From the NCBI RefSeq assembly GCF_032191835.1, contig NC_083226.1, positions 125,426,001 through 125,490,000 on the forward strand: a DNA stretch of 64,000 nucleotides, read 5' to 3'. Each line of letters begins with the position of its first letter. The first letter of the stretch is position 1. This DNA is from Heteronotia binoei. Its lineage: Eukaryota. This document shows, piece after piece, positions 28,963 through 64,000 of this stretch. The notes under the pieces are model-generated. The model did no database searches and was not told where the DNA came from. It was given only the letters and a program-made list of their open reading frames with translations. Made by a program: the position numbers and the translations under genes.

Positions 28963-29112
28963 CTCTCCTCTGTTCAAAAAGGACAGTTTATATAAGCTGA
29001 TTTACAAGCATGCACTTATCCAATGGATGGACAAAACAGCATACCCCAGCTCCATTTCAGGTCAGAAACATGCTGTGAGGCAAAGCCTACAGTCCCTTCT
29101 CTACAGACACTA

Positions 29113-34020: not shown

Positions 34021-34046
34021 CCTCTATTCCTAGTTTGGTGTGGAGA

Positions 34047-34322
34047 GCTAGTTTGGTGTAGTGGTTAAGTGTGCGGATTCTTATCTGGGAGAACCGGATT
34101 TGATTCCCCACTCCTCCACTTGCACCTTGGGTCAGCTATAGCTCTGGCAGAGGTTGTCCTTGAAAGGGCAGCTGCTGTGAGAGCCCTTTCCAGCCCCACC
34201 CACCTCACAGGGTGTCTGTTGTGGGGGAGGAAGGTAAAGGAGATTGTGAGCTGCTCTGAGACTCTTCGGAGTGGAGGGCGGGATATAAATCCAATATCTT
34301 CTTCATCTTCTTCTTCTTCTTC
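34047..34322 (+). mobile_element. Gecko Squam3-like SINE with (TCT)n tail
   Basis: Same family as the 29113 copy; CpG-rich, so young. Confidence 0.87.
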
Positions 34323-37300
34323 ATCTGGCAACAACTCTTTCTGATCCCTATCAGCAAAGCCTGGTTGGCAAAAAAATCTTCACAGTCTTGGATGAAAAAG
34401 ATGGCTACTCTCAGGTCAAACTTGACAAGGAATCTGCTGAACTGTGCACATTCAAGATTCCATGAGGTCACTACCTTTTAGCATCAAGTCAGACACTGAA
34501 GTTTTCCAGCAAAAGAACCATAAGTGCTTCTCTGATATCCGGGGTGTGTACATTGTCACAGATGATATGATCAATGCAGCCTCTATGGAAGCAGAGCACC
34601 ATCAGATTCTTAAACTAGTCCTGAAAAGGACTTGCCAGAAAAGTTTGAAATTCAATCCTGACAAAGTTCAGTTCATGGTTGACAAAGTCAAGTACATGGA
34701 CCACATCATCTCTAAAGATGGTCTTCAACCTGACAATGCTAAAGTACAAGCTATAATTCAGATGTCCCTGCCAACAGATAGAAAGGGTGAACAACGTCTG
34801 TTAGGCACTATGCAGTATCTCTCCAGGTACATCCCTAATGAGCCCTGACAGCACCTCTGTGTACACTCCTACAGAAGGACGCAGCCTGGCAGTGGGACCC
34901 AGCTCAGCAAGATGCACTGGATGCTCTTAAGACAGCAAATCACCACAGCTCCTGTGCTCAGATTCTTTGATCCAAAAGAGTAGCTGGTAGTCCAGGCTGA
35001 GGCCTCCAAAGACAGCTTAGGTGCTTGCCTGCTCCAAAAGATGCAGCCCATTGCCTATGCCTCTAGAGTGCTTACACAGGCTGAGCAAAACTATGCACAA
35101 ATCCATGCAGTTTCACAAACTAATCCTATCAGTGATCATTTGCTGTGCCAGTTGCCAGAGGCACAGGGCATTGGGTCCATTTATAGGAAAACTGTTCATT
35201 CTACAAAGTCTTGAGAACTGTCAACAAATCTGCAACAAACATTCACCCAGCCCAGGAGCAGGTGGGTTAGTTGCTGAACTTTTGTCATACAAAAGTTCAA
35301 AGTGCTCTTTCCTGCAGGAGAGGTATGTGCTTGAACCTCTGACCCCAAACTTGCAATAGATATTTTGTTTGGGGACATGTCATGCTAGGGGATATCCATG
35401 TAAAGATATAGTCTATAGAATCTGTCTCTTTAAGGAACAGGCTTAGTCCTAAGTAGAACTCCCTCTCTTCACATGAATGGATGTGTCTTATGGAATTTTA
35501 CACAGTTTTATCAATTTAAGCATATCCTGCCACTACATTTCCCTCAGGTGGGCTTCCAGGCAGCTGGTCCTCCAAACAGAAGTGAAACCACTTGTAGAAT
35601 AAAGAAACATTTACATTCACATTAGGTCCTGCTCATTATTTTGGTTTGGAATTAATCAATATATACTAGTTAGAACTGGGTTGTTGGTAGTTAGGACTCC
35701 AGCTGTTGTCAAATCTGTGTTGTTCCCTGCCTTGTTGTTCTGCACATAAAAGCCATTTTGAAGACATCCTGCCTGCTGCATCTCTCTGGCCTTAGGGCAG
35801 ACCAGTTACCCACCTCCACAGTGAGCTCATTTTACATCACACTCTCACTGCCCAGGGAAGTAACATCATAATCAATTCTGCACATTTCTGATGGTTAGAG
35901 AATATTGAACATTATTTCAGTCATATTATTTTAGTTAATCTAGATACTAGTTATAGTAAAGAATGGGCATGATTAGCGTTGGATCATGTTTATTATCTGA
36001 ATGCAAATCTTTCTGGTGTCTTTAATTTGTAGAATGGTTTTACATTTACATTGTCAGTCTATGTCAAGATGTACTCCTCATGTGATAGCTTTCTTAATTC
36101 ATTGGTTCAAGCTTAATGTGAAAACTATAGTCTATTGCTCAAATCAGATTAATTTATACCCTGAATAAAACTTTGCTGATCTTAAAGGTGCTATGGACTC
36201 TAACTTTATTCTCTCGCCACTCTTGTTAGAAACTCTTGTTTCTAGTTATAGGTATTAATGTGAAGCACCCCCCTCTTTGTTTTGAAGCAAATATCTGCCA
36301 CAAAATGCAGTATCGCTTGAAAAAGACTGGTTATTCTTAATTTTCTAAGCAGTCTACAGCGTCCTCTTCATAATTCCTCATCTGCAGCTTTCCACACAGG
36401 AAATAGTTAAGCAACAATGTTATACAGCTGCTTCTGTGTATTCAGTTTTTCTGCATTGCTGTTCTTTGATGGAGTTGTCCAATTCTTTAATACTTGAATG
36501 GCACTACTCACTCTCTGTAATTGGAACACATGGCCCTGGCACAGCCCTTTGCTTTAAATTCTGCTATTATATTATATTGCACCTGATGTGACCTATTGTT
36601 TTCTGTACTGGGAGGAGCTGCTCAGCTGGGCTTTAATGACCATCAGTCATCTCTTTTCTCACAATGGCTGCTCATTTCTTGGGTTTCCAGTTCCCTTTGA
36701 TTACCATGTTTGAGGATGTGTCATCTAATCAGAAAAAAATAGAGGAAATTAGGGGGGGACATAATAGGAGTTAAGAGAGGGCTCTACAACCAGATGGGAA
36801 TGAATGTACTGAAATTTTCAGATGCTCAGTTAACAAGAAACCATGTTGAAAAAGTTTCCCCCCCAAAATAGTGAGCCAACACTGAAGAATCAAATAATTA
36901 TCAGAAGCTGTCTAATCTACAGAGATGCCAGAACCATTCCTTCCAGTGACCCAAGTGTTGTTGGAAATCCACATGTGAATGCTGGTTTCACAAGTGCAAC
37001 CCAGACCTCTGTGTCAGTGGATCTTTTCTCTTGAAACAACTGCAAGTTTGGGCAATACCTCAGGGAAGGACTTGGAATGTTTATTGAATGTATAAAATTA
37101 AAAGAAGAAAAAGTACTGTGCTCTGGGATTGATGGAATATCTGAATCTTTGCTCTGATTGGGGAAAAGTCAGAATCCTATCTGTTATTAGTGGGTTTGGA
37201 TTTCTGTAAAGGTGAACATAGGAAGAGTAGAAAATGTCCCAAAACAATCATAAGTGTGTGTGTGTGGGTGGGAGGGTTTTGGTGGGTACCAGTTTTTGTA

Positions 37301-37989: not shown

Positions 37990-38380
37990 GAGGTCAGACT
38001 GGGCCCTACATGGGACAGGGCCTTCTCAGTGGCAGCACCAATGCTGTGGAACACTCTCCCTGAGGCCATGAATGCTGCGGGGTCTCTCCCAATTCTACAG
38101 GGTTTGTAAAACCAAACTTTTTAAACAGGCCTATAACAACTAAGGGAGAAGGCTGCCGCTTTTATGCTGCTGGACAATTCCACCAGAAGGACCACCAACA
38201 GATAAATTGTATATTCTGTATAGCATCAATGCATTGTTTTAAGTTGTTTTAAATTGTAAATTGTTTGTCTTATTGTTTTATACCTACAATTGAGATGTTA
38301 ATTTTATTATGATTGTTAGCCGCCCTGCGTCCGTTTGGAAAGGGCAGGATATAAATTGAAAGTAAATAAATAAATAAAAT
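37990..38380 (+). mobile_element. L2 LINE 3' end
   Basis: GGGCCTTCTCAGTGGCAGCACC..TGGAACACTCTCCC..AGCCGCCCTG..GGGCAGGATATAAAT plus (AAAT)n. Confidence 0.7.
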
Positions 38381-39411
38381 AAAAGTTTTCTTTGCTTGTG
38401 GCATGCCCCTTTTTTCACCGAAGACTCTGACAACAAGCTAAGAGCTAAGCACTACACAGAACATTGAAGCTAGGGTCATATGAATACCTTGTGATGATCA
38501 TCATTCTATCAAAATTATTGTCTCTGACTGGTAGCAGCTTTCCAGGATCATAAGTTGATGTATTTCACGTCCTGTTTTATTGGAGATGCCAGGGATTGAA
38601 CCTGGGAACTTCTGCATCCAAAGCAGATTCTGTACCACTGAACCCATCCCCTTTCCAGCTCCTTTCTGTACAGAACACTGAAATTACACAAGCCTTACCT
38701 TGGGTGGAGAGAGAGTAGACAGATGTCTGGGTCAAATGTGCAAAGAAAGAATGAGGAGTATTAATAATATAGCATCATCAATGACACTTTATAGAGAAGA
38801 TTGTGTTAAAGACAGTCCCCTGCCCTGAAGGTCTTACAATATATGGTTTAAATAGAGAAGAACAAGGAATAAGTATCAGTTGATGCACAGAGATAGACAG
38901 TACAGGCTTCATCTCCTCCATGAAGAAGAGAGGCTCAGGATCACCATTCAGGGCTGTACTGTGGGTTTGACTTACTATGGGACAGTACATGCCCAGCTGG
39001 TGGGGGGAGGTGACCCATGTGCCCAGTATACATCAGAAAGTCCCAAATCAACCCAAATGATCAAATGGTAGGAGCACCATCAGTAAAAGAAAAGGTTAAA
39101 TACAATTCAACGCAGGTATGATAGAGATGCGTAAAGTTACATATGGTGTAGAGAAAGTAAATGAAGAGAGGACCAATATAGTGCAATGGTTAGCGCATTC
39201 AGAGTAGTATCTAGGCAACACAGGTTAAAATCCCAGCTCAGCCACAAAGTTTGCTGTGTGCCTTTGAGCCAGTCATTCTCTCTCAGCTTCAGGATTGTGT
39301 GTGTACATGCATATGTATGTGGTCCTCCTTACCAATTGCAAGTTAAAGCAGTCATAGGGGAGGGCCATTTGCACTAAGCCTCTAGTGCTAAGAGAGCAGG
39401 TTGTCTTCCCC

Positions 39412-41482: not shown

Positions 41483-42021
41483 TTTTGGGAGAAAGGGTGT
41501 CTCTGTTTTATTTTACTTGGGTCTATATAATCTTGATTGAAGACAGCTGTTGTTTTCATGGAGTCGAAGGGTGGGGGACTGCTTCAGCCACTTTTCAGCT
41601 CTTCTTTCAATTTCCATTTCATTTTTAAATGATAAGCCCATCTACATGAACAAGACTGGGGAGAGGACATGCCAACTAGAGGCCTTCTTAAAATTTTCTT
41701 TTGCCCTGTGTGCAGCCCAGAGACAACATTGGCAAAGAATGTGCACTCTGTACTTTTTTGTGCTTTTATTTATTTATTTATTACGTTCAACTTATATCCC
41801 GCCCTCTCCGCAAGAGGACTCATTTTACTTTTACTTAAAATGGTGTGGTACAGTTTAAAAGGGGGCAACTGAGATGTATTTAAAGGAATGACAGGATTGC
41901 CCATTAAAAACAATGGGAGAGATCTGAAGATCCATTGGAGTTAATCAGAACAGGAATGCCAATTGACTTGCATGGGCTCCAATAAAATACATTACAGCAA
42001 TAAAAAGTTGCAAAGAAATTA

Positions 42022-47593: not shown

Positions 47594-48114
47594 TGAATGT
47601 GCAAGATGGTCTAATCTGGTGTGATACTGAGCTGTACTTTCTCCTCTTTGTTGTATTGTTCAATGTCAACTTGTATGTAGTTTAAAGTATTTTCAAGTGC
47701 TAATGTTGCCTTTTCATAATCATTGCTGTCTCCTGTAACAGGTAGTGCGTAAAATGTAATAACATTGTCCTTTTGGTGGTGGGGTCAGCTTTCATTGCAA
47801 GAAATAAATGTTCCAGCCTTTCACACTTATGTTCTTATATGAGCCCCAATGTACTATTATGTTTATGGACTGGAAATTCAAAAAATGTAGAATATGTCAA
47901 AAACACAATTGCTCCATGAAATGTCATAGAAAATGGGGCAGTTCCCTCTTCTTTGGGAAAAAATTATCACTGCAGTTTTTCTGAATATTGTGGAAAGTTA
48001 TGTTGTAGCCCTGACTGAAGTTGTTGGGACAGAACATTTTGGAAATGGCTGTTACAGTATGTGGAATAAGTTGGCAAGCTAACATCTAAACTGTGTAAGC
48101 AGGAATGTAAGTAC

Positions 48115-48800
48115 GTAGTAAATGGACCCCCCCCCCATGAATTATTAATGAAGGTGGCGTAGTCAGTGACATCACTTCCAGTGACGTTACCGAAAACTGT
48201 GTCAACCCCCGCATAATTAATGAAGGGGTGTGGCCAGTGACATCACCAGAAACTGCGTCATCAAGGTCATGGCCCCAATGACATCACCCAGGTCATGACC
48301 CCAGAGTCACGTGACCAGAAATTGCGTCAAATGGGGATGGAAGTGACCTATTTTGGGGGCGCCACCATGATGTAGGTACTCTGCATATTTAATTAAACAC
48401 CTCCCACCAGGAGGTGGCCTGTCTAGCCCCACCCCCTAGCCCCGCCAATCACATATATGCCCCACCATGATGTAGGTACCCTGCATATTTAATTAATTAA
48501 GCATCTCCTCCAGGAAATGACCTTACTAACTCACACCACGTGGCATAGCCAATGAGTGTCTACATCCACCCCGCAGTAACGTAGCAACCCCACATATTAA
48601 TTGAGTAGACTGGAAATCACATGTGTAGCCCCCTCCCCTGCCCCCTTCTCCAGCACCACCTACTGCAGCATCATTGAACTTCCATCTGTGGCACCCCACC
48701 TCGGAAAATGGGGGCCACCACTGAGAATGTCTGAGTAGGCCCATGCAACCCCTCTAACAACACGCCCAGCCAATAGCAAAGGGGCTGGGGCCCACCCCAC
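48115..48800 (+). promoter_or_regulatory. Maverick left terminal region (probable TIR plus promoter) with ATF/CRE-like, POU-like, GC/CACCC and CCAAT motifs
   Basis: Repeated TGACATCA, TGACGT and TGCGTCA motifs; TAATGAA twice; GGGGTGTGG; CCAAT near 48446, 48549 and 48770; 35-bp direct repeat at 48362 and 48462. TIR length cannot be set without the right end. Confidence 0.7.
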
Positions 48801-48939
48801 CAGGTTATTTTAGGAAAGGAGGCATTTGTGCTTGAACACACGTGTACAGCCTCTTGCTGAGAACATAGAAATTCCTGCCAGACCCTTGGTACTTTTCAGC
48901 CTGCAGCCATTGGTGAGATAAAATTTTAAAAGGAGATAT

Positions 48940-49579
48940 ATGAGCAGTTCTGAGGATGAAGAATTTGTTCCCACGAAGCTCCATTTCCCGGGGCCTGTTT
49001 TTGATGAAGAGACACGCGTTACTATGAACAGCGGGGAGACAACAGCTGACATGCTAGCTAAAAATGGCGTTACCCATATTTTGCAAGGCCTTCTGGAAGA
49101 TTTCCCAGACACTCAGAAACTTATTCCCTATGGCAACCAGGTTTTCCAAGAGATTCCTGATTCCCAAGAGCTGATTCCAGGTGAGAACTCTATCGCACAG
49201 GTAATTTGGGAAAGGGGAAAAGGGTGGGGGAGTAGAAAAGGTTATTGGAAACAGGCTTTGCATAGTACTTTTAACTGAAAAAATCTGCTTTTAATTTTCT
49301 AGTATTCTTCCTGCATTGAGCCACAAATCCCAGATTTAAAATTGACTGATGCCATAGAGGAGAATATTCCTTTGGAGGAAAAGATCTCCATGCAGGTATG
49401 GACCCCAGTTGTTGAGTGTTGTGTGGTGGATGTGGGGCTTGTCAAGGCTTGTAAAACTAAAATAAATGCTGTCTTTTTAACAGGAACAGCAAAAAATTCC
49501 ATTTGGCTTAACACCTGGGGAACGAGTCATTGCCATGAGAAAGCTTTTAAACATGAACGTTTTTGAACATTCTGACTAA
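48940..49579 (+). CDS. Predicted three-exon Maverick accessory gene (48940-49200, 49303-49395, 49484-49579), 149-aa acidic protein of unknown function
   Basis: ATG at 48940; donors CAG|GTAATT (49201) and CAG|GTATGG (49396); acceptors TTTTCTAG| (49302) and TTTTTAACAG| (49483). All junctions are phase 0, there are no internal stops, and it ends TAA at 49577-49579. Splicing is inferred. Confidence 0.65.
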
Positions 49580-49606
49580 ATACCACCCCGAAAACGGAAA
49601 TCAGCA

Positions 49607-50035
49607 ATGTCATCATTAGTGCGTGCGGCTGTCTATTCAATAACAATGCATTGTATCAATGAATTTTTATATGAATCTTGTGAAGGATGTCAGCGTCAGT
49701 GGCCAGCATAGAAATCACATGTATGCGTTTCTTGGTCTGAACAAATAGTAGACCGCAAGGTGAAATTTGTTACAGATGAAATTTTGATACATTCAATAAT
49801 GCAAGTTGTGAACTTGATTGGCTATTCATTGAAATGTCTGCTCTTCATGCAAGAGAATATGGACCAGATATTTGATTTATTAAATAAAGTTGGAGACGCC
49901 TCAAATTCACGCAAAACTCTTGAAACAATTTTGAAGAACTCTGACAGTGCAATGGTTAAATATGTTCAAGGCTATATCAAAGATTTGCATTTTCGTTCAT
50001 TTTTTTCTGCGTCAGAAAAAATGGCATTTCTGTGA
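49607..50035 (+). pseudogene. Maverick accessory gene with a Cys/His motif (CEGCQRQWPA*KSHVC) and one premature stop
   Basis: ATG at 49607 is in frame with track ORF 49760-50035; single TAG at 49709-49711; AATAAA at 50040, 50079 and 50092 right after the stop. Confidence 0.7.
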
Positions 50036-50097
50036 TGTAAATAAAAGCGAGATTGCAGCTGCTTTTTACTGTTTTTGGAATAAACCTTGTAAATAAA
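50036..50097 (+). terminator. Cluster of three polyadenylation signals closing the left accessory unit
   Basis: AATAAA at 50040-45, 50079-84 and 50092-97; two are directly preceded by TGTA (UGUA). Confidence 0.7.
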
Positions 50098-51978
50098 AGG
50101 AACTATTTTAAAGAAACTAGTGTTGTTATTACATGCCCAGGCATGCCCCCATGAAATGAAGGGCTGGTGGTTGCAAGGGAGGAAGGAAGGGGGGCTGCAC
50201 TCTGATTAAATCTGGCAGCATTTTAAAATTCCTAGGATGGTTAGCCCTCATATTTACTGGCTGCTGTTTTAAAAAAAAAAGTTTGGGAAGGGAGAGCCTA
50301 ATTTTATATATATATATATTGCAGTGTATTCTGAAAAACTACTTACCCTCTTTCCCATGTGCTTCCTGAAAACATGACTGCTTCTTCTCTGAGATTGTGG
50401 GGAGGGGAGAAGAAGGGGGGAATTTTGCAGTCACATGGATGGAACCTGGTTACCTTTACAATTCATGCACAATTTCTATTGGATTAGCAAGTCACATGGA
50501 AGGGGGGAATCAATCACAGCTCTATTTCACACACAATAGTGGTCAGTTGTTAATTGAATTAGGCTGATTGGATCACATCCTTTTTGGCCAGAGGAGGAGG
50601 AGGTCAGACACATCTTTACCTTGAGGCTGCAGGTAAGCCATGTGTTACTCTTTTTTCTAAGTTATTAGAAATCAATACTTCATGTAATTTTGATTTAGGG
50701 GTGCTTAAAACAGACAAATTGTAGGCTTGTAAATTTGTGTTTGAATCCTTTTACTGCCTGTAAAGCAGCTGGTTTATGGCCTGTTTGTCCCAAGCATGCT
50801 TAATGGGAAGAAAAGGGGATCTACTCCTGTTTTTTAAATGTAACAGACATGTGCAAGCTGCAAGGATATTTAGCTACCCTTTATCGTGACTCTTTTGAAT
50901 GGCAGAGGTTTGTTTAATATATTTTATAATATGCTTTTTTTAAAAAGGCAGATTTCTTTCCTTTGACTGAAAATGAATGCCTGGGGGGGCAGGGAGGGGC
51001 GAGAGGAGCATGGGCTGTTTCAGTTTTTCTTGATTAGATTAAACGGCGAGTCAGATCCTTTTCCAGCTCACAGAGAGGCACTAAAGGGAGACTTTTTTAC
51101 CTTGAGGTGTTTGTTTGTCTTATGCTTCATAAACGGGGATAATAATTTAATGCTGGAAAAAGGTTTATTTGTGATCAGTCTTTTTCAATATTTTTTTGTA
51201 AATCTTAGGGGTGAAAAAGAACAAATATGGCAGAAGAAAAGTCTTCAAAAAACAAAGGTATATTTTGTATTCCTCTCTCAGTTTTAAAATTAGTTTGTGC
51301 TTGTTTTTATGAGGTGTGTGTGGTGGGGGATAATTTAAAAATGGGGTGGCTGCATTATATTTTATATTTTTTGCATTTTAATATGCAGGCCAGAAGAGGC
51401 CACATGGCTGTGAAACATATCGGACAATGATACACTCAAGAATACAATGTGGTAAATATTTGATTTGCCTTTGTGTGTGGGGTGGAGGCTGTTTTTCTGA
51501 ATGAATTTAAGTGTTTTTTCCTTTTTAAAAAACAAGTTTGTAATTTCATTTTGTGCTATAAGGGTGGGAGAGATGCCTATGAACCTAAAAGCAGATACTT
51601 ACAATCCTGGGGTTTTTTTTTATTGGACCAGCATGCCCCTGGCAAAGATGATGGTGGACCTTATAAAGAAAACATTCTTCCCTCATCCCTATTGGAAACC
51701 AAGAGATGCTTGAAACCACTGTCTGGTAAATTTTAAGTTTTGCTTAACTATTCTGGATTTTCATTTTAAAAGCAAGCTTAATGTTTAATTTTTATATGGT
51801 GAGGAAATGTTTTTTTTAACTTTGTACCTATGTGATAACTCTCCACTGTATATGAGAAAAGGCTCAAATCTGATGAAATACATGTGGGCTTTAAGCAAAA
51901 CATAGAAGGCCAGCAAACACTAGGGGGTGCTATGAAACACAAAAGAACCCTGAAAGTTGTTTATATGTATATATAAAG

Positions 51979-52488
51979 AAAACACACAAACCAAACTGAC
52001 TGTAAACACCTACAAAAGGATATTTTTGAACCACCCTCTAATAAACAGAAAATTGACAATGCTAATGTGGATGTGTCTTTTAGGGACAAATGTGAGCACA
52101 TGTTAAAATTCCTGGGGGCTACAACAGCTGGAATGCAAACACTTGCTGACCATGCAAACAGTTTTCAATCATTGGGTATAGACAGCTCCTGCAACCCCTT
52201 AATTGCTGCTTTTAAAGGCAGCCTTATGGGTTTCTGGAAAGGTTTTGAAATTATTTTACAAAGTGATTAAGGGAAAGGGGTGCAAGCCAGGTTAGAGGTT
52301 GTCAGCCCCGCATTAATATCACTACAGATGCACCTTTTAGCGAGATATGTGAGCATACGTTGAAATTGCTTGGCATTACAACAACTGCTGTGCAAATACT
52401 AAATGGCCAGGCCACAAGCTTTCATTCTTTGGGGCTAGATGGCTCTTGCAATCCCTTAAATGCTGCTTTAAAAGGCAGCCTCGTGGGT
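51979..52488 (+). pseudogene. Maverick coding segment with two tandem copies of a ~60-aa CEH...SCNPL module; copy 2 interrupted by CR1
   Basis: Copy 1 (52067-52270) DVSFRDKCEHMLKFLGATTAGMQTLADHANSFQSLGIDSSCNPLIAAFKGSLMGFWKGFEIILQS; copy 2 (52321-52488) DAPFSEICEHTLKLLGITTTAVQILNGQATSFHSLGLDGSCNPLNAALKGSLVG, resuming FWKCSERILQS at 53576. Confidence 0.7.
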
Positions 52489-52503
52489 GCTTTAAAAGGC
52501 AGC

Positions 52504-53575
52504 AGAGAGTGAGTATAAATGGGCAGTCTTCGCAGTGGAGGACGGTAAGCAGTGGGGTGCCACAGGGCTCGGTACTGGGTCCCATGCTCTTTAACTTGTT
52601 CATAAATGATTTAGAGTTGGGAGTGAGCAGTGAAGTGGCCAAGTTTGCGGATGACACTAAATTGTTCAGGGTGGTGAGAACCAGAGAGGATTGTGAGGAA
52701 CTCCAAAGGGATCTGTTGAGGCTGGGTGAGTGGGCGTCAACGTGGCAGATGCGGTTCAATGTGGCCAAGTGCAAAGTAATGCACATTGGGGCTAAGAATC
52801 CCAGCTACAAATACAAGTTGATGGGGTGTGAACTGGCAGAGACTGATCAAGAGAGAGATCTTGGGGTCATGATAGATAACTCACTGAAAGTGTCAAGACA
52901 GTGTGCGTTTGCAATAAAAAAGGCCAATGCCATGCTGGGAATTATTAGGAAGGGAATTGAAAACAAATCAGCCAGTATCATAATGCCCCTGTATAAATCA
53001 ATGGTGCGGTCTCATTTGGAGTACTGTGTGCAGTTCTGGTCGCCGCACCTCAAAAAGGATATTATAGCTTTAGAGAAGGTGCAGAGAAGGGCAACTAGAA
53101 TGATTAAAGGGCTGGAGCACTTTCCCTATGAAGAAAGGTTGAAACGCTTGGGACTCTTTAGCTTGGAGAAACGTCGACTGCGGGGTTACATGATAGAGGT
53201 TTACAAGATAATGCATGGAATGGAGAAAGTAGAGAAAGAAGTACTTTTCTCCCTTTCTCACAATACAAGAACTCGTGGGCATTCGATGAAATTGCTGAGC
53301 AGACAGGTTAAAACGGATAAAAGGAAGTACTTTTTCACCCAAAGGGTGATTAACATGTGGAATTCACTGCCACAGGAGGTGGTGGCGGCCACAAGTATAG
53401 CCACCTTCAAGAGGGGTTTAGATAAGAATATGGAGCACAGGTCCATCAGTGGCTATTAGCCACAGTGTATGTGTGTATATAACATTTTTTGCCACTGTGT
53501 GACACAGAGTGTTGGACTTGATGGGCCGTTGGCCTGATCCAACATGGCTTCTCTTATGTTCTTATGTTCTTATGT
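52504..53575 (+). mobile_element. 5'-truncated young CR1 LINE inserted in the Maverick
   Basis: Uninterrupted RT C-terminus (GVPQGSVLGPMLFNLFINDL, FADDTKL, YCVQFWSPHLKKDI, LFSLEKRRLRG) to the stop at 53459; 3' UTR ending in a (TTCTTATG)3 tail; CpGs retained. Confidence 0.95.
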
Positions 53576-53796
53576 TTCTGGAAATGTTCTGAAAGAATTT
53601 TACAAAGTTATACTGTATGCCCAAATGGGGGGGGGCCCTGCAGATAGGTGTGGGGCAGGTCAGAGGGCCTTGTCACGCACACCAAAGGAAAAGCAAGCAT
53701 TTGAAACTGAGAAAGGTTTGGCAAAGAGTCCTACAAAAGTGCTTCAAGAATGCAAAAAAGTTTAAATCTAGACAAAAAAGAAGTGACTCTCTTTAA

Positions 53797-56700
53797 AGGT
53801 TTTTTAGCAGAGTCAGGGCCTCTGAGAGATCAAATGTTAACACAGGTAATGGTGCCTCTCTCAGCACAGAGGTAGAGCCTGTCACCACCTCCATTTTGCC
53901 AAATAACAATGCAGTCCCTGTCTCTGAGTGTCCAAATGATAATTCAGTTCATGGTTCCCCTCTCAGCGCAGATGTAGAGCCTGTTGCCACCTCCAATTTG
54001 CCAAATAACAATGCTGCTGCTGAACAAGGCCCCTCATCACCCCCACAAAAACTGTCCCCTAGCCCTGACACTCCAAAGGTTAACCTAGAAAAAGTTGGAG
54101 AGTGGGAACGACATCTTGCAAACTTGCCAATGGATCAGTATTCAGAGGCCTTCAGGTTTGTAAACTTAGAGCAGTTAAGCCACCCCGTCCTCATACAACA
54201 GGCAATACAGGGCCTTCTTAATGATATGAAAGCCAGAGTCCAGGATGGTGATTTAGTACAGCTCCATATAAATGAGGCGGGCCTAAGCAGTGCCCTGCAT
54301 TCTGTAGGGAGGCCCGTGGGTGGCAAATCTCATGCAGAATAATGTCGAAATTGATCTTCATGGCACCCTGCACTTAATTATGACGGTAATAAGGAATAGA
54401 GGGGGGAGAGGGAAGAGAGTTATAAGTACTGTCCTCTATAGTGAAGTTATCAAAAAGAAGCAGCTGCATTTATTAAAACCAGATCATGGCAATCGTATTC
54501 TTTGCTTTGGCATAAGCCTCACTGGTGTTATGTCAAAGACGTTGGTAGCCATCCCCAAATTTACAGAAAGGGCATGGCTGTTGTACAGAGAGCTTGGGTT
54601 TTCAGATGAGCAGGAGATATTATCGGATGTTGCCACCTTTGAAAAGCATTTAAAGGTAAAATATAGCTGTGGTATTGAATGGTGGTAAAGGTTGGGAAAT
54701 TTTTATGGAATAATTAATTTGAAAGGGTTTTATGGAAAGAAACATTATTGTCAGGTTTGTGGTGATATTTATAGCCATTCACACCTGTGTAAATACAGCT
54801 GTCACATGTGCTTGGACCCTAAATGTAGTCCTCAGCAAGAGGTAAAAAGCAATAACTGCAAAGTATATTGTAAATCCTGGATCTGCCTTGAAGAACACAG
54901 GGATGTGCCAGACATCTGCAAAACCAAAATATATTGTAAATCATGCCAATCCTATGCTCCAAAGAAAAACACTTGCCGTGTTCGCTGGTGTAAGCAATGC
55001 AAAGAGCCTGTTGGGGATATAAATAGCCACCGCTGTTTCATGCCTCCTCTTAAAAAGGTTGAAATTGGCAACAATTATATTTTTTATGATTTTGAATGTA
55101 TGCAAGAGACTGGCATACTTATTCCAAATTATATCTATGCAATGGGGCTAGAGGAAAGTGATACCTGGGAATTCAAAGGAGAGGGCTGTGTGTCAAGCTT
55201 TGTTAAAAAAATCATCAACAACAAATTCAAGAATTATAACTTCCTAGCGCATAATGCAAAGGGGTATGATAATTACTTTATCATTAGGCAATTATTAGGA
55301 GAAAAGATGGAAGTTGACCTTCTTACGCAAGGGGGGAAGCTCATGTGCATCACAGTTAAGAAGCTAGGCATCAGATTTCTGGATAGCTTAAACTTCTTGC
55401 CAATGAAGCTGGCCAAATTGCCGCAGGCCATGGGCTTCTCTGGATGTAAGGGGTTCTTCCCCCATTACTTTAACACTGATGCTAATTGGGAGTATGTTGG
55501 GACAATGCCTAGGATGGAGGATTATGGTGTTGATAGCATGATGAAGGGTGAGAAAGCAGTTTTTTCCTGGTACATGGAGAACAAAAACAATGAATTTAAC
55601 CTACAAAAAGATCTGGCCTATTATTGTCAACAGGATGTTAAAATCCTGAGAAAGGCCTGTCTCTTGTACAGGGAGGAAATTATATCCATGTCAGGAATTG
55701 ACCCCTTTAACCACATAACTCTCAATGGGGTGTGCATGGCAACATATAGGCACATGTTTTTGAAATCTGATACAATTGCCCTCCTGCCACATGACCATTA
55801 CCACAGGCAAGAAAAGCGTTTTTCAACCCCATCCATATAGTGGCTAATGTATATCGAGCACAAGGAGGGTCTCCAGACATAGCATGCCCTGAGTCCGCTT
55901 GCGGAGAGGGCGGGATATAAATGCAAAGTAATAAATAAATAAATTAATAAATAAAATAAAGGTGGCAAGCTAAAAGCAGGAAATTATTTTCTTGATGGTT
56001 ATGCGGTGGTTGGGGGGTAGCCAACAACCTTTGAATTTAATGGGTGCTTTTTCCATGGTTGCCCCACATGCTACAGCCCCAGTGATAGAAACCCATTGAC
56101 AGATTCATCCTTTGCTGACTTACACTATAGAACCCTGAGGAAAGAAAGTTACCTGAAAAGCCAGGGATATGCTGTGGGAACACGAGTGGAGGGAGATGGT
56201 GACAGCTGACAGGGAGCTTGGAGGCTTTCTGAGTGAGAAGAAATTTCCATCACTGCTGCTCCCTAGAGATGCTCTATTTGGGGGGGCAGAACAAATGCCA
56301 TTTGCTTCTATTACAATGCTGAAGCTGGTGAAAAAATACATTACTATGATTTCACCAGCCTGTACCCTTTTGTCAACAAGACAAAGAAATATCCAATTGG
56401 ACACTCCCAAATTATTTATAAGGACTTTGCCCCAGTATCTGAATACTTTAGCCTGGTCAAACTGAAGGTGGTGCCACCTCAAGGTCTCTTTTTCCCTGTA
56501 TTACCCTACAAGGTGGAAGGCAAACACATGTGCAGAGACTAAGCAACAAGAGCATTGTATGCATTCTTCACTGAAAGAGTGCTAGAAGGCGTGTGGTGCA
56601 CAGTGGAACTGATGAAGGCCCTCAAGAAGGGGTATCAGATCATGTCTATTAGTGAGGTGTGGCATTTTGAGGAAAGCTCTGAAGACCTGTTTTCTGAATA

Positions 56701-57531
56701 CATTAAAGTGCACCTCCACCAAAAACAGGAGTCTTCTGACTATCCTAGCTGGTGTACAGATGAGGGGGAAAGGGCCAAATACATACAGGATTACCTAGAG
56801 AAAGTTGCATTCTGAACACTTAGCTGTCAATCCTGCAAAGAGGCAGATTGCAAAATTATTTTTAAATTCCTTGTGGGGCAAGTTTGGCCAGCGTTCAAAC
56901 TTGGTAAACACTACCATAGTGAGGGATGCTACCAAGCTTCTAGAATTTGCCTTTTCTCCAGCATATGATGTGTCAGGGTTTGAGATAATTGATGATGAAA
57001 CAGCAAGCGTGTCCTGGAAACACACAAAAGATACAATTACCTTATTTGGCAACACGAATGTTCTGATTGCCTGTTTTACAACATCCTATGCATGGTTAGA
57101 ATTGTATAAAATTTTAGATAGGCTGCAAGACCCATTCAGTCATTTTTGTCAGTAGGGAGGGGGATTTTATTCCAGCTCTGAGATTATTTAGGAGATCTCA
57201 CATCTGAACTCCCACCAGATGAGCATATCACAGAGTTCACATCAGCAGGTCCTAAAACCTATGGTTACAAATTGTCAGGTGGAAAGGTGTACATGAAAGC
57301 CAAAGGCATCACCCTCAACGTTAAAAAATTAACTTTAACACCTTGAAGGACCTGGTCTTAGATTACACTGCCGAGCAGGCATCTAAAGAGATCACAGTCC
57401 AGCAACCCTCCATCATAAGGAAAAAGAATCAGTGGTTTATTGAGACAGGGCCACTTAAGAAAACCCTCAAAGTTGTTTATGATAAGAGGGTCCTTGTGGA
57501 CAAAAACAGAACATTGCCACATGGTTTTTAA
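53797..57531 (+). pseudogene. pPolB: Protein-primed family B DNA polymerase (pPolB), fragmented
   Basis: Cys-rich N-terminal region; ExoI YIFYDFE, ExoII AHNAKGYD, FLDSLNFLPMKL, ExoIII YCQQDVKIL; inserted FEFNGCFFHGCPTC domain; motif A YDFTSLYP (~56350); motif B KLFLNSLWGKFGQR (~56850); KTYG; C-terminal LPHGF*. Many stops and frameshifts; the motif C YxDTD appears deleted near 57130. 5' limit uncertain. Confidence 0.95.
55885..55960 (+). mobile_element. L2/SINE 3'-tail fragment inserted in pPolB
   Basis: GCCCTGAGTCCGCTTGCGGAGAGGGCGGGATATAAAT plus an (AAAT)n tail; the same family occurs inverted at about 41765-41822. It splits the polB HAL/GG junction. Confidence 0.8.
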
Positions 57532-57532
57532 A

Positions 57533-58222
57533 ATGGATGTATGGTGGAAACATCCATTTTCTGCAGTACTGGCAGGGCCTAGCAATTGTGGCAAGAGCAT
57601 CTTTGTAAAAAGTATTTTGGACAATGCTCAACATATGCTTTCTGTATCACCTGATAATGTCATATGGTTTTATAGTTGTTGGCAGAATCTGTATGACAAA
57701 ATCCTCTGTAAATTCATGTCTGTAAAGTTTGTTGAAGGGCTGCCTGAAACCCTAAATGATAATCAACTGTTACCCACTAAGAAAGTAAGTCTGATTATAG
57801 TGGATGATTTGATGGACTCTGCTTGTCAATACCCTGAAATTGAGAGAGCCTTTACCAAATATGTGCATCATCGAAATCTGAGCGTTATATTTATTACTCA
57901 GAATATTTTCTTTTGTGGAAAAAGCACCAGAACCATAAGCTTAAATACAGAATACCTGGTTCTGTTTAAAAACCCCAGGGACAAATTACAGATTGCTACT
58001 CTGGCCTGCCAAATGTACCCGGGGAAGTCCCAATTCTTTCTGGAGGCCTTTGAGGATGCAACACAAAAATTTTATGGGTATCTGGTGGTGGTTTTAAATG
58101 TGTGCATACCAGATTCATTGAGGTTAAGAACAAGGCTTTTCCTGCCCCAGAGGGCTGCTGCATATGTCTTAAAAACAAAACAAGCACCCAGTGGGCACAA
58201 AATGAAACAGACGGTACACTAA
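57533..58222 (+). CDS. ATP: FtsK/HerA-family genome packaging ATPase (open frame, 229 aa)
   Basis: MDVWWKHPFSAVLAGPSNCGKS (Walker A), LIIVDDLM (Walker B), HHRNLSVIFITQN, LFKNPRD, YGYLVV; starts 2 nt after the polB stop. Confidence 0.93.
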   Translation: MDVWWKHPFSAVLAGPSNCGKSIFVKSILDNAQHMLSVSPDNVIWFYSCWQNLYDKILCKFMSVKFVEGLPETLNDNQLLPTKKVSLIIVDDLMDSACQYPEIERAFTKYVHHRNLSVIFITQNIFFCGKSTRTISLNTEYLVLFKNPRDKLQIATLACQMYPGKSQFFLEAFEDATQKFYGYLVVVLNVCIPDSLRLRTRLFLPQRAAAYVLKTKQAPSGHKMKQTVH

Positions 58223-58242
58223 ACATCCTGCGAAGGGTCAAC

Positions 58243-58570
58243 ATGTCCAGCTGTATAAAGAGGAATGTGCTCCTCCTAAAACTACTATCAAAACAACCCC
58301 ACAACAAAAGAAAGCCATTCTATGCTCAGCTTCAGATGATCTGGTCACAGCTATCTCAGAAATTGCACTCAATACTTTAAAAAGGAACATTCCTCTTTCA
58401 CCACGTCAGGTGTGCATGTTGAGGAAAAGGTGAAATTTCATTAAAAAACTTAGTAACAAGAGAGTACCACTGAAAAAGAAGAAACAGCTGGTGAAACAAT
58501 CTGGCGGATTTATAGGGCCTCTGTTAAGCTTTGCTATTCTCTCTTAACTGGCCTTTTAACAAGCAGGTGA
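58243..58570 (+). pseudogene. Small basic conserved Maverick protein ending QSGGFIGPLLSFAI(P)LLTGLL; frameshifted
   Basis: Reconstruction MSSCIKRNVLLLKLLSK/TPQQKKAILCSASDDLVTAISEIALNTLKRNIPLSPRQ..KR*NFIKKLSNKRVPLKKKKQLVKQSGGF... needs two 1-nt corrections. Its TGA overlaps the next ATG (TGATG at 58568-58572). Confidence 0.75.
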
Positions 58571-59269
58571 TGGAATATGCAGAAAAAATGTACTTGGTTC
58601 CTAGCCATCAGCTGGAACAATTAAGGAACCCCCCTCCCTTTAAGGAGGAGAACATCAGAGCCCATGCAATGCATTCCCTAGATATTGAAATGAAGGCTGT
58701 TCTCCAAAGGCAAGATTTAACAGAGTTTCAAAAAGTAAGCCTATTTGAAACTCTGCTGCAAAAATATTTAGCTCATGTGAAGCAGGGGGAAACTGAAAAA
58801 TCTAAACTGAACCTGTTTCTGCCTCAGCCAGAGACAGCCTCTGAAGAAACCAATACGAGTTCTGATGGTCTTCCAATAAATAATAGACAGCTTGCCTGAC
58901 AGGTTTAAGAACCATGCAAAGATGCTGTTAAACAAAATGAAACAGAACAAAAATTTTTCTTCTTGGGATGGCAATGGAACCTTTGTATATCGAGGTGAAA
59001 ATACAAAGGGATCTCATCTTATGGATTTGGTGAAGGCCATCACTTTAACACATGATCTGCCTAGTCATCACAAGCCTAAAGACTGGGATGTTTTCATGAA
59101 GGCTTTGGCTGAACTAAATGTGCCATCTTCTGTTGTGGGCAACACTGGTAATCGCCATGCTTTGGAATACCTAAAGAACCCCGCCTCCATTCCAGAGATT
59201 TCACAGCTGTCTTGCAGAGCATCTAAAAAACACAAAGCTGTCACACACCCTGGCTGGATAACCTTGTAA
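58570..59269 (+). pseudogene. Conserved uncharacterised Maverick protein (PW-type, tentative), one frameshift near 58885
   Basis: MEYAEKMYLVP..LDIEMKAVLQRQDL..QKYL joined to SWDGNGTFVYRG..GSHLMDLV..KPKDWDVFMKALAELNVPSSVVGN..WITL*; followed by AATAAA at 59277. Confidence 0.7.
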
Positions 59270-59276
59270 TCATGTA

Positions 59277-59371
59277 AATAAATGTTTTTTAATTGAAAGA
59301 AATTTTGTTTGTTTAGTTTTTTTTTAAGTGAACAGACAAAAGGGTTTAAGCCCACAAGGGGGTGCTTTATT
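59277..59371. terminator. Convergent polyadenylation signals between the two Maverick gene blocks
   Basis: + strand AATAAA at 59277-59282; - strand AATAAA (TTTATT) at 59366-59371. Confidence 0.7.
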
Positions 59372-59397
59372 GAAATACAATGTTGTTGTTGTGGAAC

Positions 59398-59917
59398 TCA
59401 CTGCAAGATGCACAGGCCTGGGGTTGCACAAAGAAGTTTAGAGCATGTCTGGGCATGCCGGGTTTTTTTACAAATTGCTCCACTATTTGGTCATTCTGTG
59501 CTTAATCATCAGAGTACAGCTCTTGAATCTGTTCAAAAGAAAGCCCTTTACTGCACAACTGTAGAAAAATATGCAGTGATATCCACAGACCACAGAATAA
59601 GATGTCTGTAGTTGCCTGGGTTGGAATGCAGTCTCATTGGCATTTTTTCTCAAAAATCTCACAATGGATTTAGGAAATAAAACACTGCTAGGCGCATGTC
59701 CATACAAATCAAAGAACTTGCTGCATCCATCCTCTGTCAAGTATATGGTAAACCAATATTCTCCAGGGAGGTCATGTGGGTGGGTATTTACAACTAGCCC
59801 TGCTGGTCTTTGATCCACTCTCTGTTTGGGGAGCCAGTCGCTTGGATACACTCCCAAGAAAGTCTTTTTGGTGTAGGGGTTAGTAGATAACACAGTTGTT
59901 AGCTGCAGGATGTCCAT
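59398..59917 (-). pseudogene. PRO: Adenain-like cysteine protease
   Basis: MDILQL..FLGVYPSDWLP..VNTHPHDLPGEYW..FFDLYG..QLQTSYSVVCGYHCIFF. The catalytic His of the usual GxHW reads as Tyr; frameshift after CIFF; 3' end approximate. Confidence 0.9.
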
Positions 59918-59918
59918 G

Positions 59919-60347
59919 TGGTCAGAGTTGTTGAAGCAGTGACCACTGGACTCACCAGTCACAGGGAGCAGTCCCAAAGAAGACACTCGAAACAGACAGC
60001 AGGTTAAACAAACTGCATTGGGTTCAGGCAAGTAACAGAGTCAGTAGGCATCCAAGAGTCATACACTTACACACAAGTAGAGCCAGGCAGAGGTACAAAT
60101 ACAGAGTCCAAGAGAGTAGTCATTACACGGTCCAAAGTCATCACTCCAATATTGATCATCCAAACAGTATGCCACGCTAGTATCGTTCTTTCCCTAACCC
60201 ACAGTGAACTGGTAGCTGGCTACTGTATTTCAATCACAATGCAAACTGGTTAAGTGGCCTACACCTGACAACAATGTACCACCTGTAGTCAAGGATGACT
60301 CAATTCCAGACAGTTCCAAGTTTCCTTAAAGGAATAGGACACTGTCA
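59919..60347. mobile_element. Probable solo LTR (429 bp) with 4-bp TSD CATG
   Basis: Begins TG (59919) and ends CA (60347); CATG on both sides (59915-18 and 60348-51). Removing it abuts the MCP stop to the protease ATG. Confidence 0.75.
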
Positions 60348-60351
60348 CATG

Positions 60352-61648
60352 TTACACATAGTCAAACAAAACATTTCACCTGTGGTTTATCTCTATAATG
60401 TTGTCAAAAACACCATAGACAATCATGTTGACAGCAATGCTCTAGCAAACTGCACCTCAGCCTGCAGGTTCCCAGTTTTAATCAAGGAATAGTGGTTTGC
60501 ACATTCCTGATTTGCAGAAAGATCAAATGCAAATAGTGTGTAGCCCTGTGCAAACTCCTTGCGGTTTACTAACAAAGATATGTCATATTTTTACCAGGGG
60601 CCTGAACAAGCTGCATGTATTCCCTCATGCAGTTTCCACCTTCAAAGTCCGGCTGCAGTGGTTTTGTGGGTACGTGTTCTCCATCCAAGTAGAGAGCAAA
60701 GAAATTAATGTCATAATGCTTAACGTTAAATAGGTTTTTATTATGGGTCCTGCTGAAGGACTCGTTATCCACCAGTCCAATAACCAGCAGCTTGGATAAT
60801 TGCCCCCAAAACAAATTCTCTTGGTTGCTGACACAACTTCCTTCAGGGATGCTAAACTCTTTGATGCCCACACGGTCCACAGGATATTTGGCATTAGCTG
60901 TGAAGAGCGCCTCTGCATGGCCTAAATGGACACCAGGGGCTACTCTGACTTTCTTAACGAAAAAGGAAGCAGACAAGATGTTTAATTTGCAACCCCTGTT
61001 TAAATCATCCGCCATGAGACAAAAAGCATCTTTACTGCGTGTCAGTTTAATTTTGACATCCACGCCATTTAAGAGCAATTTTTCTTGGAAAAACAGGTCA
61101 CTGTGAAGCTGACCCAGCAAATCTATTTTTCTGCTTTCAGCCACTAGAGCTGCTCTTTTAACAAACCCTTTGTCTCCATCCAGGGCAGTTAATTCATGTT
61201 CAGCAGCTGTGTCTTTGTAAAACAGGCCTGCAGAGAACTGAGTGTTCAGAGTATCATTGCTGTATTTCAGTACAGCTTCTATAAACCCTCTGTATGGATA
61301 TGCGTTATGCGAATGCATAATGAGCCTGTCTCCCAGAGTCACATCCAGCTGGCTAAAGATGGAGGCAATAGGATAATTCACCAGACTCACCCTTGCATTT
61401 CTGTCAAGGTCTGTCCCATCTTCTTTCACAATTTTGCAGCACAAATAAAGCAGGGTATTATTTAAATCCATATACTCATCTCCATTTCCAGGGATGAAAA
61501 AGTCAAGTGGCACAGATTCTGACAAAGCCGTCAGGGGAGGAACTTCAATATATAGACATCTCTCGATGCTGGTTTGCGTAGGGGCTATTTGGAATAGGTC
61601 CAGTGCAGATTTTGTGCATTCTTCTGACCCACTATGAATAAAAGCCAT
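60352..61648 (-). pseudogene. MCP: Major capsid protein (double jelly-roll, PY type)
   Basis: MAFIHSGSEECTKSALDLFQIAPTQTSIE..YMDLNNTLLY..NYPIASIFSQLDVTLGDRLI..YPYRGFIEAVL..LHSDLFFQEKLLLNGVD; after a frameshift near 60570, GYTLFAFDL..IKTGNL..VNMIVYGVFDNIIEIN..VLFDYV*. Confidence 0.93.
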
Positions 61649-61654
61649 TGCTGT

Positions 61655-62119
61655 TTAAAATATATCTCGGAGGCTCGGGAGACGTCTTCCTGCCCTTCTC
61701 TTGGCCTTCTGCTTCTGAGGGACCTTGCGCTTCACAGCTTTTCTTTTAAAGGGGTGTGGTGGGCCAATTAGTTGTGCCCTTGATGCCTTTCTTTTAATTC
61801 TGCGCTGTCTTTTAAGGTACATGAGGCCTGAGCCTTCTTGTGGCATAAGGGGACTCACTTTATTTAGAACAGCACCAGAAACATGACCTACTACATCTTT
61901 GGCTATATTTCTGGCTGCGGTTCTCAAATGGGGCTTCATGAGTTCAAATCCCCTTCTCAAAAGAGGGACAGCTTTTCTGAAAAGGCTCCGGAAAATTCCA
62001 CCTACCCCAGCCCCATACATCACTGGGGCACCATGGTAACCAGGAAGAGCATAGCCAGCCTGGTTCTTGTAGTAATTCCTATAGAGGTCAGGATCCCTAT
62101 AGCTTTTTAAGATGACCAT
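61655..62119 (-). CDS. PZ: PZ-type Maverick protein (Gly-rich N-terminus, basic C-terminus ending DIF), intact 154-aa ORF
   Basis: YYKNQAGYALPGYHGAPVMYGAGVGGIFRSLFRKAVPLL...KRKAVKRKVPQKQKAKRR..RDIF*; lies between mCP and MCP. Confidence 0.8.
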   Translation of the reverse strand: MVILKSYRDPDLYRNYYKNQAGYALPGYHGAPVMYGAGVGGIFRSLFRKAVPLLRRGFELMKPHLRTAARNIAKDVVGHVSGAVLNKVSPLMPQEGSGLMYLKRQRRIKRKASRAQLIGPPHPFKRKAVKRKVPQKQKAKRRAGRRLPSLRDIF

Positions 62120-62129
62120 CTTTGTGTGC

Positions 62130-62869
62130 TTAACAGACTAGACCTTTCCGTGGACAAAAGTGAAACATCACGATCACCTTACCAAACTGGAATGGCACAT
62201 TCTTGTTCTGATCTGTCTTTATTTTAACAGTGATGGTGTCTATGTGGTGCTTATTCACAGGAATATCATGTAGCTTGTCATAGATATTATTGATACAGTC
62301 GCCAGTCTCCCCTTGCACAGTGATACAATGCAGTAATGGAACATATGCATCACCCACAATTTGGTGATCCACAATGTCTGTGTAAATGTACAAAGTGTTG
62401 AACCACCCCCCCACCCCGTGATGTCTGCTGTAAAGTTTAGATTTTGGATCGCCTCATCTGGGGGTGCCCCTAAAAGGTGAACCAATTCTTTAGAAGCTGA
62501 AAAGGTATAAGTAGGTGGTGCTCTTAGACCGATCTTCCTATACCGTCCATGCTCAGTTCGAGGTGGGTGGGGGGAATTTGACTGTATGGTGTTGTTCAGT
62601 TTCACCACCAGGTCAAGAATGCTTTTATAATAGCCACTACTGAATCTGTATTTCCAGTGTTTCTCCTTGGTAACAATTACAATGGAGGAATCTTCAGTGA
62701 GGGTCTTCCAGCTGTGAGGGTACTGTATTTCCATAAGCTCAACCTCCCAGGCCCCTGGAAGGTCCAATGACCATGCTAGATGGGTGGTAAAGGCCATTGT
62801 AATGTTCTGTGGAAAAACACTTGCACATGCGTTGCTAGGGAGGGTGATAAGGAAGCCGCTGTCAGCCAT
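62130..62869 (-). pseudogene. mCP: Minor capsid protein (penton-like, PX type), frameshift in the G run near 62410
   Basis: MADSGFLITLPSNA..FPQN..FTTHL..LDLPGAWEVELMEIQYPHSW joined to LYIYTDIVDHQIVGDAYVPLLH..FQFGKVIVMFHF*. Confidence 0.9.
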
Positions 62870-62876
62870 TTTTTTC

Positions 62877-63910
62877 CTATATAGGATCACAGAGTTGAGA
62901 AGCAGGAACCCAGCTGTTAAATTTATCAGGCCACCCTAACCACTTCACTAGATGTTGTTTTCTCTTCCCCCTGCCTTTGGAGGCTAAGATTTTCTGAATT
63001 TGATACACTCTGTCTGCTTTACTCTTAACTTTTTGTAACACTTCAGGATAGAATGAGCCTATGAGGGGGTCTCTGGCATAATCTTTTGAGCAAGTACACA
63101 GGCCTTTGCCTCTACAGATGACCTGCTCTACTATAAATAGTTCATCTGTGAAGCCCCATTCATATCCTTTTACAAAAACTTCTTTGCTTTTAGACACACG
63201 CACATGATCTCCTTTTCTAATGAAAGGCCTCTCCTTTACATTTGCCCCAACACAGTCTCTGTAAAACGTTTTCCACATGGTATGAGCGTTGGTGTGGTTT
63301 ACATCCACAGAACGGGCTCTGATTGTCCTGTGAAAGCTGTGGTTGTAACTTTTAATAAGCAGCTGCAGCACGTCAATATATCTGAAGGTGTTGTTGGCAG
63401 TAAAATACCTTCACATTTTTATTTTTAATGTTCAATTGAAGCTCTCCACAATAGCCGCTTTGACTTCATTATGGGTATAAAAGTGGTGGACTCTGTGTTG
63501 CTTTAACACGCTGCTTACAGACTAGTTTAGAAGCTCTATACCTGCATCAATCTGAAGCTTGGCAGGTATTCTGCGTTGTTTGAAAATTTCCTTAAGGGCT
63601 TCTGACACCCTCCCCCCTGTCTTGTTTTTTAAGGTCAAAGCCCAGGCATATTTAGACAATATGTCAACCACTGTTAAAATGTACTTGTAGCCATCATGGT
63701 CTTGTTTCTCTTAAAGTGGACGCGGGCTTGCTTATGCAGTGTATAAGCATCTTGCTCTGAAAGCCAGTTAGTAACATGATTTTAAGTGAGAGCTTTACAC
63801 TGCTTTTTGGCTGCGTGGAAGAGAGGCCTCACCCTGCCAAAGCTCCCTGCTTCTCCGGGTGTATAATACATGTGACTTAAGACCTCCTCTTCATCAGCTG
63901 CCCCCATCAT
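62877..63910 (-). pseudogene. INT: Retroviral-like integrase with C-terminal chromodomain
   Basis: YYTPGEAGSFG..QDAYTLHK..YKYILTVVDILSKYAWA..LQIDAG..AIVESFN..YNHSFHRTI..KGYEWGFTDELF..GSFYPE; chromodomain YQIQKIL..HLVKWLGWPDKFNSWVP. Several stops; the segment carrying the first catalytic Asp is missing. Confidence 0.92.
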
Positions 63911-64000
63911 CGCCCACTTAACTCAGAAATGATCACACAAGGTTATAAAACAAATGTCTTTATTGTAACAGAACTACCTCTTCCACTTATTATTAATTTT

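Follow-up and report, generated by a model that had tools for sequence, protein, structure and literature searches.

Gene content and limits of the element

The right-hand part of a 64,000-nucleotide stretch of the Heteronotia binoei genome (NCBI RefSeq assembly GCF_032191835.1, contig NC_083226.1, positions 125,426,001 to 125,490,000 of the forward strand; hereafter the window) is occupied, from position 48114 to the edge at 64000, by an endogenous Maverick (Polinton, 'adintovirus') element. All nine core genes are present in the published order and form two facing modules, with pPolB, ATPase and two small genes on the plus strand and integrase, minor capsid, a basic small gene, major capsid and protease on the minus strand. 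Polyadenylation signals face each other between the modules (59277..59371; AATAAA at 59277 on the plus and at 59366 on the minus strand), as a preliminary description of this DNA had reported, though a single AATAAA is weak evidence alone, because 16 plus-strand and 13 minus-strand copies occur in 48001-64000. Related loci were sought by scanning metagenome contigs with a capsid alignment, yielding 37 loci (L-numbers), and in one of these, L016, open reading frames (ORFs) correspond to all nine window genes, with gene order and strand orientation preserved. P-numbers denote database relatives used as protein references. A search of viral contigs with the capsid gave 0 loci, and phage records gave no match.

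The plus-strand module opens with a broken gene for a protein-primed DNA polymerase B (53695..57531; start approximate), carrying four stops, 11 frameshifts and one insert. In a Pfam profile scan of 22 pieces of the element, PF03175 matches it in four separate pieces (best E 2.6e-19). The protein is 54% identical to turtle proteins and 56% identical to P0122 over 1222 residues (P0122 residues 13-1337), with a 66-nt insert; measured against the closer P0121, it has three stops and seven frameshifts over the part covered. In a PolB tree of 23 rows, using 22 of 112 matches, it is placed among tetrapod Mavericks and forms a group (95/94) with P0121 and a protein from Sceloporus. The packaging ATPase follows as an open frame (57533..58222), matching PF04665 at E 2.3e-4, just short of the cut-off, as with a relative, and 51% identical to the corresponding L016 ORF. 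The last two genes, both broken, are PM (58243..58567; one stop, two frameshifts) and PZ (58570..59269; one frameshift), named by position (PMC8097293). A 102-bp in-frame tandem duplication also lies in the low-complexity PolB N-terminus (53811-54014, plus strand), its mismatches without third-position bias (5/19). Two database models combine Maverick PolB with a host gene, a SCAN/KRAB protein in Alligator (P0125) and an ephrin receptor in Paroedura (P0137), and are likely annotation artefacts of intronic insertions.

On the minus strand, an rve integrase with a C-terminal chromodomain (62877..63910; start approximate) is broken by three to four stops and one to three frameshifts, depending on the reference. 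Its rve domain is matched at E 2e-6 by a 62-aa piece, under the cut-off, and its chromodomain at E 3.5e-9; the protein is 45% identical to an L003 ORF that itself passes the rve cut-off. The minor capsid gene (62130..62869; one frameshift) stands in the expected place and is 38-40% identical to relatives, without a profile match. Next comes an open frame with an Arg/Lys-rich C-terminus (61655..62119), PW. This protein presumably also carries an adenain-type cleavage motif, which together with the basic tail would fit a core protein. It had previously been called PZ, a name that must be corrected because the literature gives the order as ppolb-atp-pm-pz facing int-mcp-pw-Mcp-pro, with PZ as the last plus-strand gene and PW between the capsids (PMC8097293).

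The major capsid gene (60352..61648, minus strand) is open for its first ~356 codons and then carries two frameshifts and one stop. Its relative P0008 is 82% identical over 356 residues, and a fold search with a model of P0008 returned viral capsid or scaffold jelly-roll proteins in the top 14 of 50 rows, including those of PBCV-1 (Z 16.9), faustovirus (Z 16.6) and mavirus (Z 13.2), with the Sputnik capsid also matched (Z range 13-17); the modelled fold thus supports assignment to the double jelly-roll type. The module ends with an adenain-type protease (59400..59917, minus strand; 3' end approximate), broken by one frameshift and one stop and 37-43% identical to relatives' ORFs. All four relatives' ORFs tested match PF00770, one above the cut-off, while the window protease itself gave no direct Pfam or PDB match; its histidine motif is altered, the histidine being kept in 16 of 16 matches across the loci.

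The putative left end is placed at 48114, one base before the start at 48115 given earlier, where CGTAGT retains five of the six bases of the AGTAGT-type end motif reported for lepidosaur elements, Paroedura included (PMC8097293); a near match of six bases is frequent by chance. The six bases before it, TAAGTA (48108..48113), are a candidate left target-site duplication. The putative terminal repeat region (48114..48700, plus strand; right limit approximate) contains short direct repeats (D4, D5, D18) and raised GC and CpG, the CpG count per 100 bp going from 0-1 in 47601-48100 to 0-4 (mostly 2-4) further right. Inside the window the left end has no inverted copy, and an end-motif search performed at chance level (41/100 shuffles) and was circular. 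On the right, the minus-strand AATAAA noticed earlier is present (63959..63964, some 50 bp upstream of where integrase begins), whereas the gene past the window that it was said to imply is only plausible; such a right arm gains plausibility from L002 and L004, each of which has an ORF before integrase on the same strand. In these related Mavericks (L002:696-2059, L004:754-2117) two accessory ORFs of 277 and 158 aa lie upstream of integrase, without a match in the window.

The identity of the locus as an endogenous vertebrate Maverick or adintovirus, proposed in the preliminary description, is supported by the agreement of four lines of evidence. Core genes align with the expected profiles (PF03175 four times, PF04665, rve and chromo, with PF00770 in the relatives' proteases), synteny is shared with L016, the capsid fold of a relative is that of viral jelly-roll proteins, and trees of both PolB and the major capsid protein place the window proteins among Maverick relatives. 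The locus is a further example of a known, mostly degraded vertebrate Maverick kind, and adds one locus to the thousands catalogued.

Decay, nested insertions and age

Stops or frameshifts interrupt seven of the nine core genes, leaving ATPase and PW open; the 'full virion gene set' described earlier is therefore there as genes, but mostly in broken form. Frameshift-aware alignment to natural relatives mapped 34 breaks over 10.5 kb, evenly spread among 10 genes. In this state the copy would be unable to replicate, integrate or build particles with its own genes, and the phrase 'once virion-competent' is fair for the family rather than for the present copy.

Three nested insertions had gone unnoticed in the preliminary description. 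The first is a 5'-truncated long interspersed nuclear element (LINE; 52499..53573, plus strand) with a reverse transcriptase C-terminus (PF00078, E 1.9e-5, under the cut-off) and a TTCTTATG-type tail, from which we take it to be CR1. Host copies with 71-85% identity to it lie at 26110-26734 and 33468-33651. It is probably a late arrival, because its frame of ~960 bp has stayed free of breaks, for which the break rate of the element gives P=0.045. The second, a retroposon 3' tail of ~70 bp inside polB (55886..55958, plus strand) that is presumably L2-like, adds 66 nt relative to P0121 and P0122 and has host copies at 41765-41822 (90%) and 38322-38386 (73%). The third is a solo-LTR-like insert of 429 bp (59919..60347; LTR, long terminal repeat) with TG...CA ends and the 4-bp duplication CATG on both sides, lying between the capsid stop and the protease start, where the gap is 2-15 bp in seven of seven relatives measured. 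It has no second copy within the window and may be an LTR element recombined to a solo LTR. The three later insertions order events in the element's history. Remains of an LTR-retrotransposon-like pol also lie in the host flank (32659-34845, plus strand; reverse transcriptase PF00078, E 8.8e-6 at 34441-34845), broken by other repeats and without a match to the 429-bp insert.

Compared with the eight H. binoei models in the capsid tree, the window capsid ORF shows 85-90% identity, and compared with a Euleptes model 82%. In this tree of 37 rows, for which 36 of 120 listed matches were picked for taxon spread, the window copy falls with eight sister copies in a star-shaped Heteronotia clade of nine rows (100/99) with inner branches below 0.01, its own branch measuring 0.074; the pattern is that left by a burst and subsequent neutral decay. 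The length of this branch suggests roughly 3% DNA change and, at a rate that we take to be 1-2.5 x 10^-9 per site per year, this gives a rough insertion age of ~10-35 million years. The copy can serve as a dated marker: the gecko burst to which it belongs left at least nine copies, all of them decaying. A second Heteronotia capsid lineage falls elsewhere in the tree, and two separate Maverick capsid lineages are found in each of Heteronotia and Euleptes, which indicates two or more Maverick families in geckos.

Two other readings of the gene states were weighed. Host domestication of the ATPase, of PW or of the capsid stretch of 356 residues as a gene would account for the unbroken ATPase and PW, and sister capsid ORFs are annotated as genes by NCBI. 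However, the chance of zero breaks at the element's rate is P=0.11 for ATPase and P=0.22 for PW, so that their open frames require no selection. Of 101 capsid columns that do not vary among 16 diverse relatives, the window copy has changed eight (0 of 102 in P0008, P0014 and P0018), which fits the branch of 0.074 as neutral decay predicts. Domestication was accordingly rejected as very improbable. That the element is intact or recently active, with its breaks due to assembly errors, is barely credible. The window does contain four N gaps, though none within the element, and intact lizard Polintons have been described in Anolis (PMC3014272). This reading was also rejected, because the genes contain nonsense codons, each of the three inserts shows junction signatures of its own, protein divergence is 10-15% from every one of the eight sister copies in the tree, and CpG depletion in polB (0.17) is close to that of the host (0.13).

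We assign a probability of about 93% to the reading that 48114-64000 is a dead Maverick provirus from a gecko-lineage burst. Several points weigh against it. Open frames persist in ATPase, in PW and over the initial ~356 codons of the capsid gene; for ATPase, PM, PZ, protease, PW, minor capsid and integrase the references are 38-58% identical, leaving the number of breaks uncertain by 1-2; and the capsid fold comes from a low-confidence model (predicted local distance difference test, pLDDT, 52) of the relative P0008 rather than of the window protein. Minor capsid, PM, PW and PZ are putative assignments named from position alone, the left-end call stands on one worn motif and a GC/CpG step, and the right terminus and the partner of the target-site duplication fall outside the window.

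The left arm and the host flank

Some 5.6 kb separate the left end from polB, close to the nearly 6 kb of accessory sequence estimated earlier, but 1.07 kb of this is the nested CR1 LINE. What appear to be two short ORFs near the left end may be one gene of three exons and ~325 codons, with three stops in this copy, because the database model P0233 joins them at the same points. Exon 1 (48865..49200; start approximate; one stop near the 5' end) is 86% identical to P0233, exon 2 (49303..49395) follows a GT..AG intron of 102 nt, and exon 3 (49484..50035; two stops) follows another of 88 nt, all on the plus strand. The introns (49201-49302 and 49396-49483) were proposed from donor and acceptor motifs ahead of the homologue search. 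P0233, an NCBI model from H. binoei found with exon 1, skips precisely the 34 codons of intron 1, which has stops in the exon frame, and switches frame across intron 2. Identity in exon 3 is 78% to P0233 and 46% to P0242. The Gekko japonicus protein P0242 and the Gekko kuhli protein P0236, which like P0233 are database gene predictions, align to exons 1 and 3 at 45-50%, their alignments beginning at 48865-48874. The exon 1 search gave 32 matches, of which six were followed up; five were clusters of short gecko or unnamed proteins, and the other, P0247, was a long repeat protein judged spurious. The remaining 26 were long and repeat-like. With the exon 3 part taken alone, 0 of 2 candidates scored, since P0233 and P0242, which do match it, fall beyond the length range covered.

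Exon 3 contains a basic PPRKRK stretch, a CxxC...HxC motif and a helical C-terminal part, and AATAAA signals follow at 50040, 50079 and 50092. The protein matched no Pfam or PHROG family at the cut-off and gave no usable Atlas match; its single-sequence model (pLDDT 41) was too poor for a fold search, and P0233 found 0 loci among viral contigs. A candidate second spliced gene (50380..52069, plus strand) is marked by promoter-like motifs and alternating donor- and acceptor-like sites, with six donors against 2.8 in shuffles; the excess of splice motifs in the left arm is not significant (14/200 shuffles reach the donor count and 92/200 the acceptor count). It is followed by two 257-bp tandem units (52070..52499, plus strand; repeats D1 and D6), the second split by the CR1 LINE and resuming at 53574. 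These were once coding, because 24 of their 45 mismatches fall at third codon positions (p=0.004).

An alternative is that the left 5.6 kb lies outside the element, the spliced gene being a host or separately mobile gene beside a truncated Maverick. The left arm gave 0 DNA matches to the 37 loci and 0 ORF matches left of 53700, P0233, P0236 and P0242 enter the comparison as protein models alone, and introns are reported to be absent from intact vertebrate elements (PMC8097293). Yet the end motif and the GC/CpG step lie at 48114, the gene has broken at the element's rate (three stops against 3.2 expected), its identity to the Heteronotia model (78-86%) is near the 85-90% of the capsid, and its named relatives, confined to geckos, are multi-locus proteins annotated as 'uncharacterized'; a separate left gene is therefore improbable.

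Taking the left arm as part of the Maverick, gecko Mavericks might carry a conserved spliced left arm, comprising a two-intron gene for a zinc-binding nuclear protein of no known family with its own polyadenylation signals, then a second multi-exon gene. We regard this only as a tentative proposal, at less than even odds. If true, the layout would resemble an adenovirus early region, vertebrate Mavericks would use host splicing for virus-born regulatory genes, and the published statement that vertebrate Maverick genes lack introns would be contradicted. Accessory genes of vertebrate Mavericks may moreover be under-annotated, because ORF-based surveys split spliced genes into short pieces, and accessory genes are the likeliest seat of host-control functions in a group whose vertebrate particles have never been seen. 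No literature was found on spliced accessory genes in vertebrate or gecko Mavericks, in a search lying mostly outside the subscription literature; supplements or Repbase may show some.

In the host flank, a MEF2-type last coding exon (18898-19095, plus strand) has its 5' part in an N gap (18734-18897) and is presumably that of MEF2C, judging from a C-terminal motif; it has no Pfam match, and 13 motifs taken to represent earlier MEF2 exons gave two chance matches and no exon. The element lies 29.0 kb from this exon, and the ~24 kb stated earlier would hold only if the 3' untranslated region ended near the AATAAA signals at 22894-24727. Nothing observed speaks for or against an effect of the element on MEF2C, a reading that was set aside. 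Among Rfam families, only two low-scoring tRNA matches were obtained in the window (38581-38651 and 28892-28963, both minus strand; 44 and 35 bits), the former called tRNA-Pro(TGG) by ARAGORN; both are probably heads of tRNA-derived short interspersed nuclear elements (SINEs). Other repeats include five to six diverged direct repeats of 40-70 bp with an inverted pair inside (247-828), a palindromic element of ~340 bp resembling a miniature inverted-repeat transposable element (31109-31446; 118-nt arms 5 nt apart within 50-nt outer arms), and a young SINE-like family, 89-97% alike and in both orientations (6957-7201, 29115-29359, 34050-34265 and 17390-17460).

Proposed history and comparison with known systems

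From what is known of the family, the ancestor would have been copied by protein-primed PolB from a repeated end motif (PMC8097293; PMC8502044), its ATPase would have packaged DNA into a capsid of jelly-roll type, which the protease then matured, and its chromodomain integrase would have put the element into the germ line, leaving a 6-bp duplication. The ancestor of the window copy presumably made particles, and its left arm may have carried spliced accessory genes. After insertion, the copy would have decayed neutrally and received three inserts, namely the end of a LINE, the tail of a retroposon and an LTR element, the last probably reduced to a solo LTR.

The closest comparison is with the vertebrate survey of Barreat and Katzourakis (2021; PMC8097293), which reports 3,511 Maverick loci, 96% of them degraded, with fossils from the geckos Gekko japonicus and Paroedura picta; a term search of its locus table gave 0 matches for Heteronotia. 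Like the window copy, surveyed elements have the same facing modules, accessory arms and widespread degradation; their AGTAGT-type end would correspond to the worn candidate motif at 48114. An intact Maverick as defined there has eight conserved open ORFs, in contrast to the window copy with its seven broken core genes, and cyprinid Maverick capsid genes are reported to be under purifying selection. The three nested retroelements are private to the window copy, judging from its relatives. Its predicted spliced accessory gene differs from the intact elements in the text of the survey, where introns were not observed.

Vertebrate adintoviruses (Starrett et al. 2021; PMC8502044), whose family, formerly Adintoviridae, is now Eupolintoviridae (PMC12166617), share PolB, an rve integrase with chromodomain, an FtsK-type ATPase, adenain and hexon- and, judged by position, penton-like genes. 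Their 'Oncoid' genes sit upstream of PolB, as does the accessory gene with cysteine motifs in the window, and the string 'splic' occurs 0 times in the main text of that study. 'Oncoid' proteins combine LxCxE/CR1 motifs with paired cysteine motifs, whereas the window gene has the position and the CxxC...HxC motif, LxCxE not being seen by eye in it, P0233 or P0242. From motifs and position, our best guess for its product is a nuclear, zinc-binding host-cell regulator of the 'Oncoid' sort, a role held at less than even odds.

Introns have a precedent in nematode Mavericks, where the cargo genes next to the left terminal repeat are reported to contain introns and the core genes none (Widen et al., 10.1101/2022.07.12.499685). 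As predicted for the window, these genes with introns occupy a region of 2-5 kb of low conservation by the left terminal repeat. However, nematode cargo belongs to protease and kinase families, is read as host-derived and adjoins integrase, whereas the window gene precedes polB and lacks a known family. Among lizards, the Polintons of Anolis (Novick et al., PMC3014272) have eight ORFs in the zebrafish arrangement, and an Anolis capsid is 74% identical to that of the window; Anolis Polintons are described as few, young and intact, in contrast to the old and broken element of Heteronotia.

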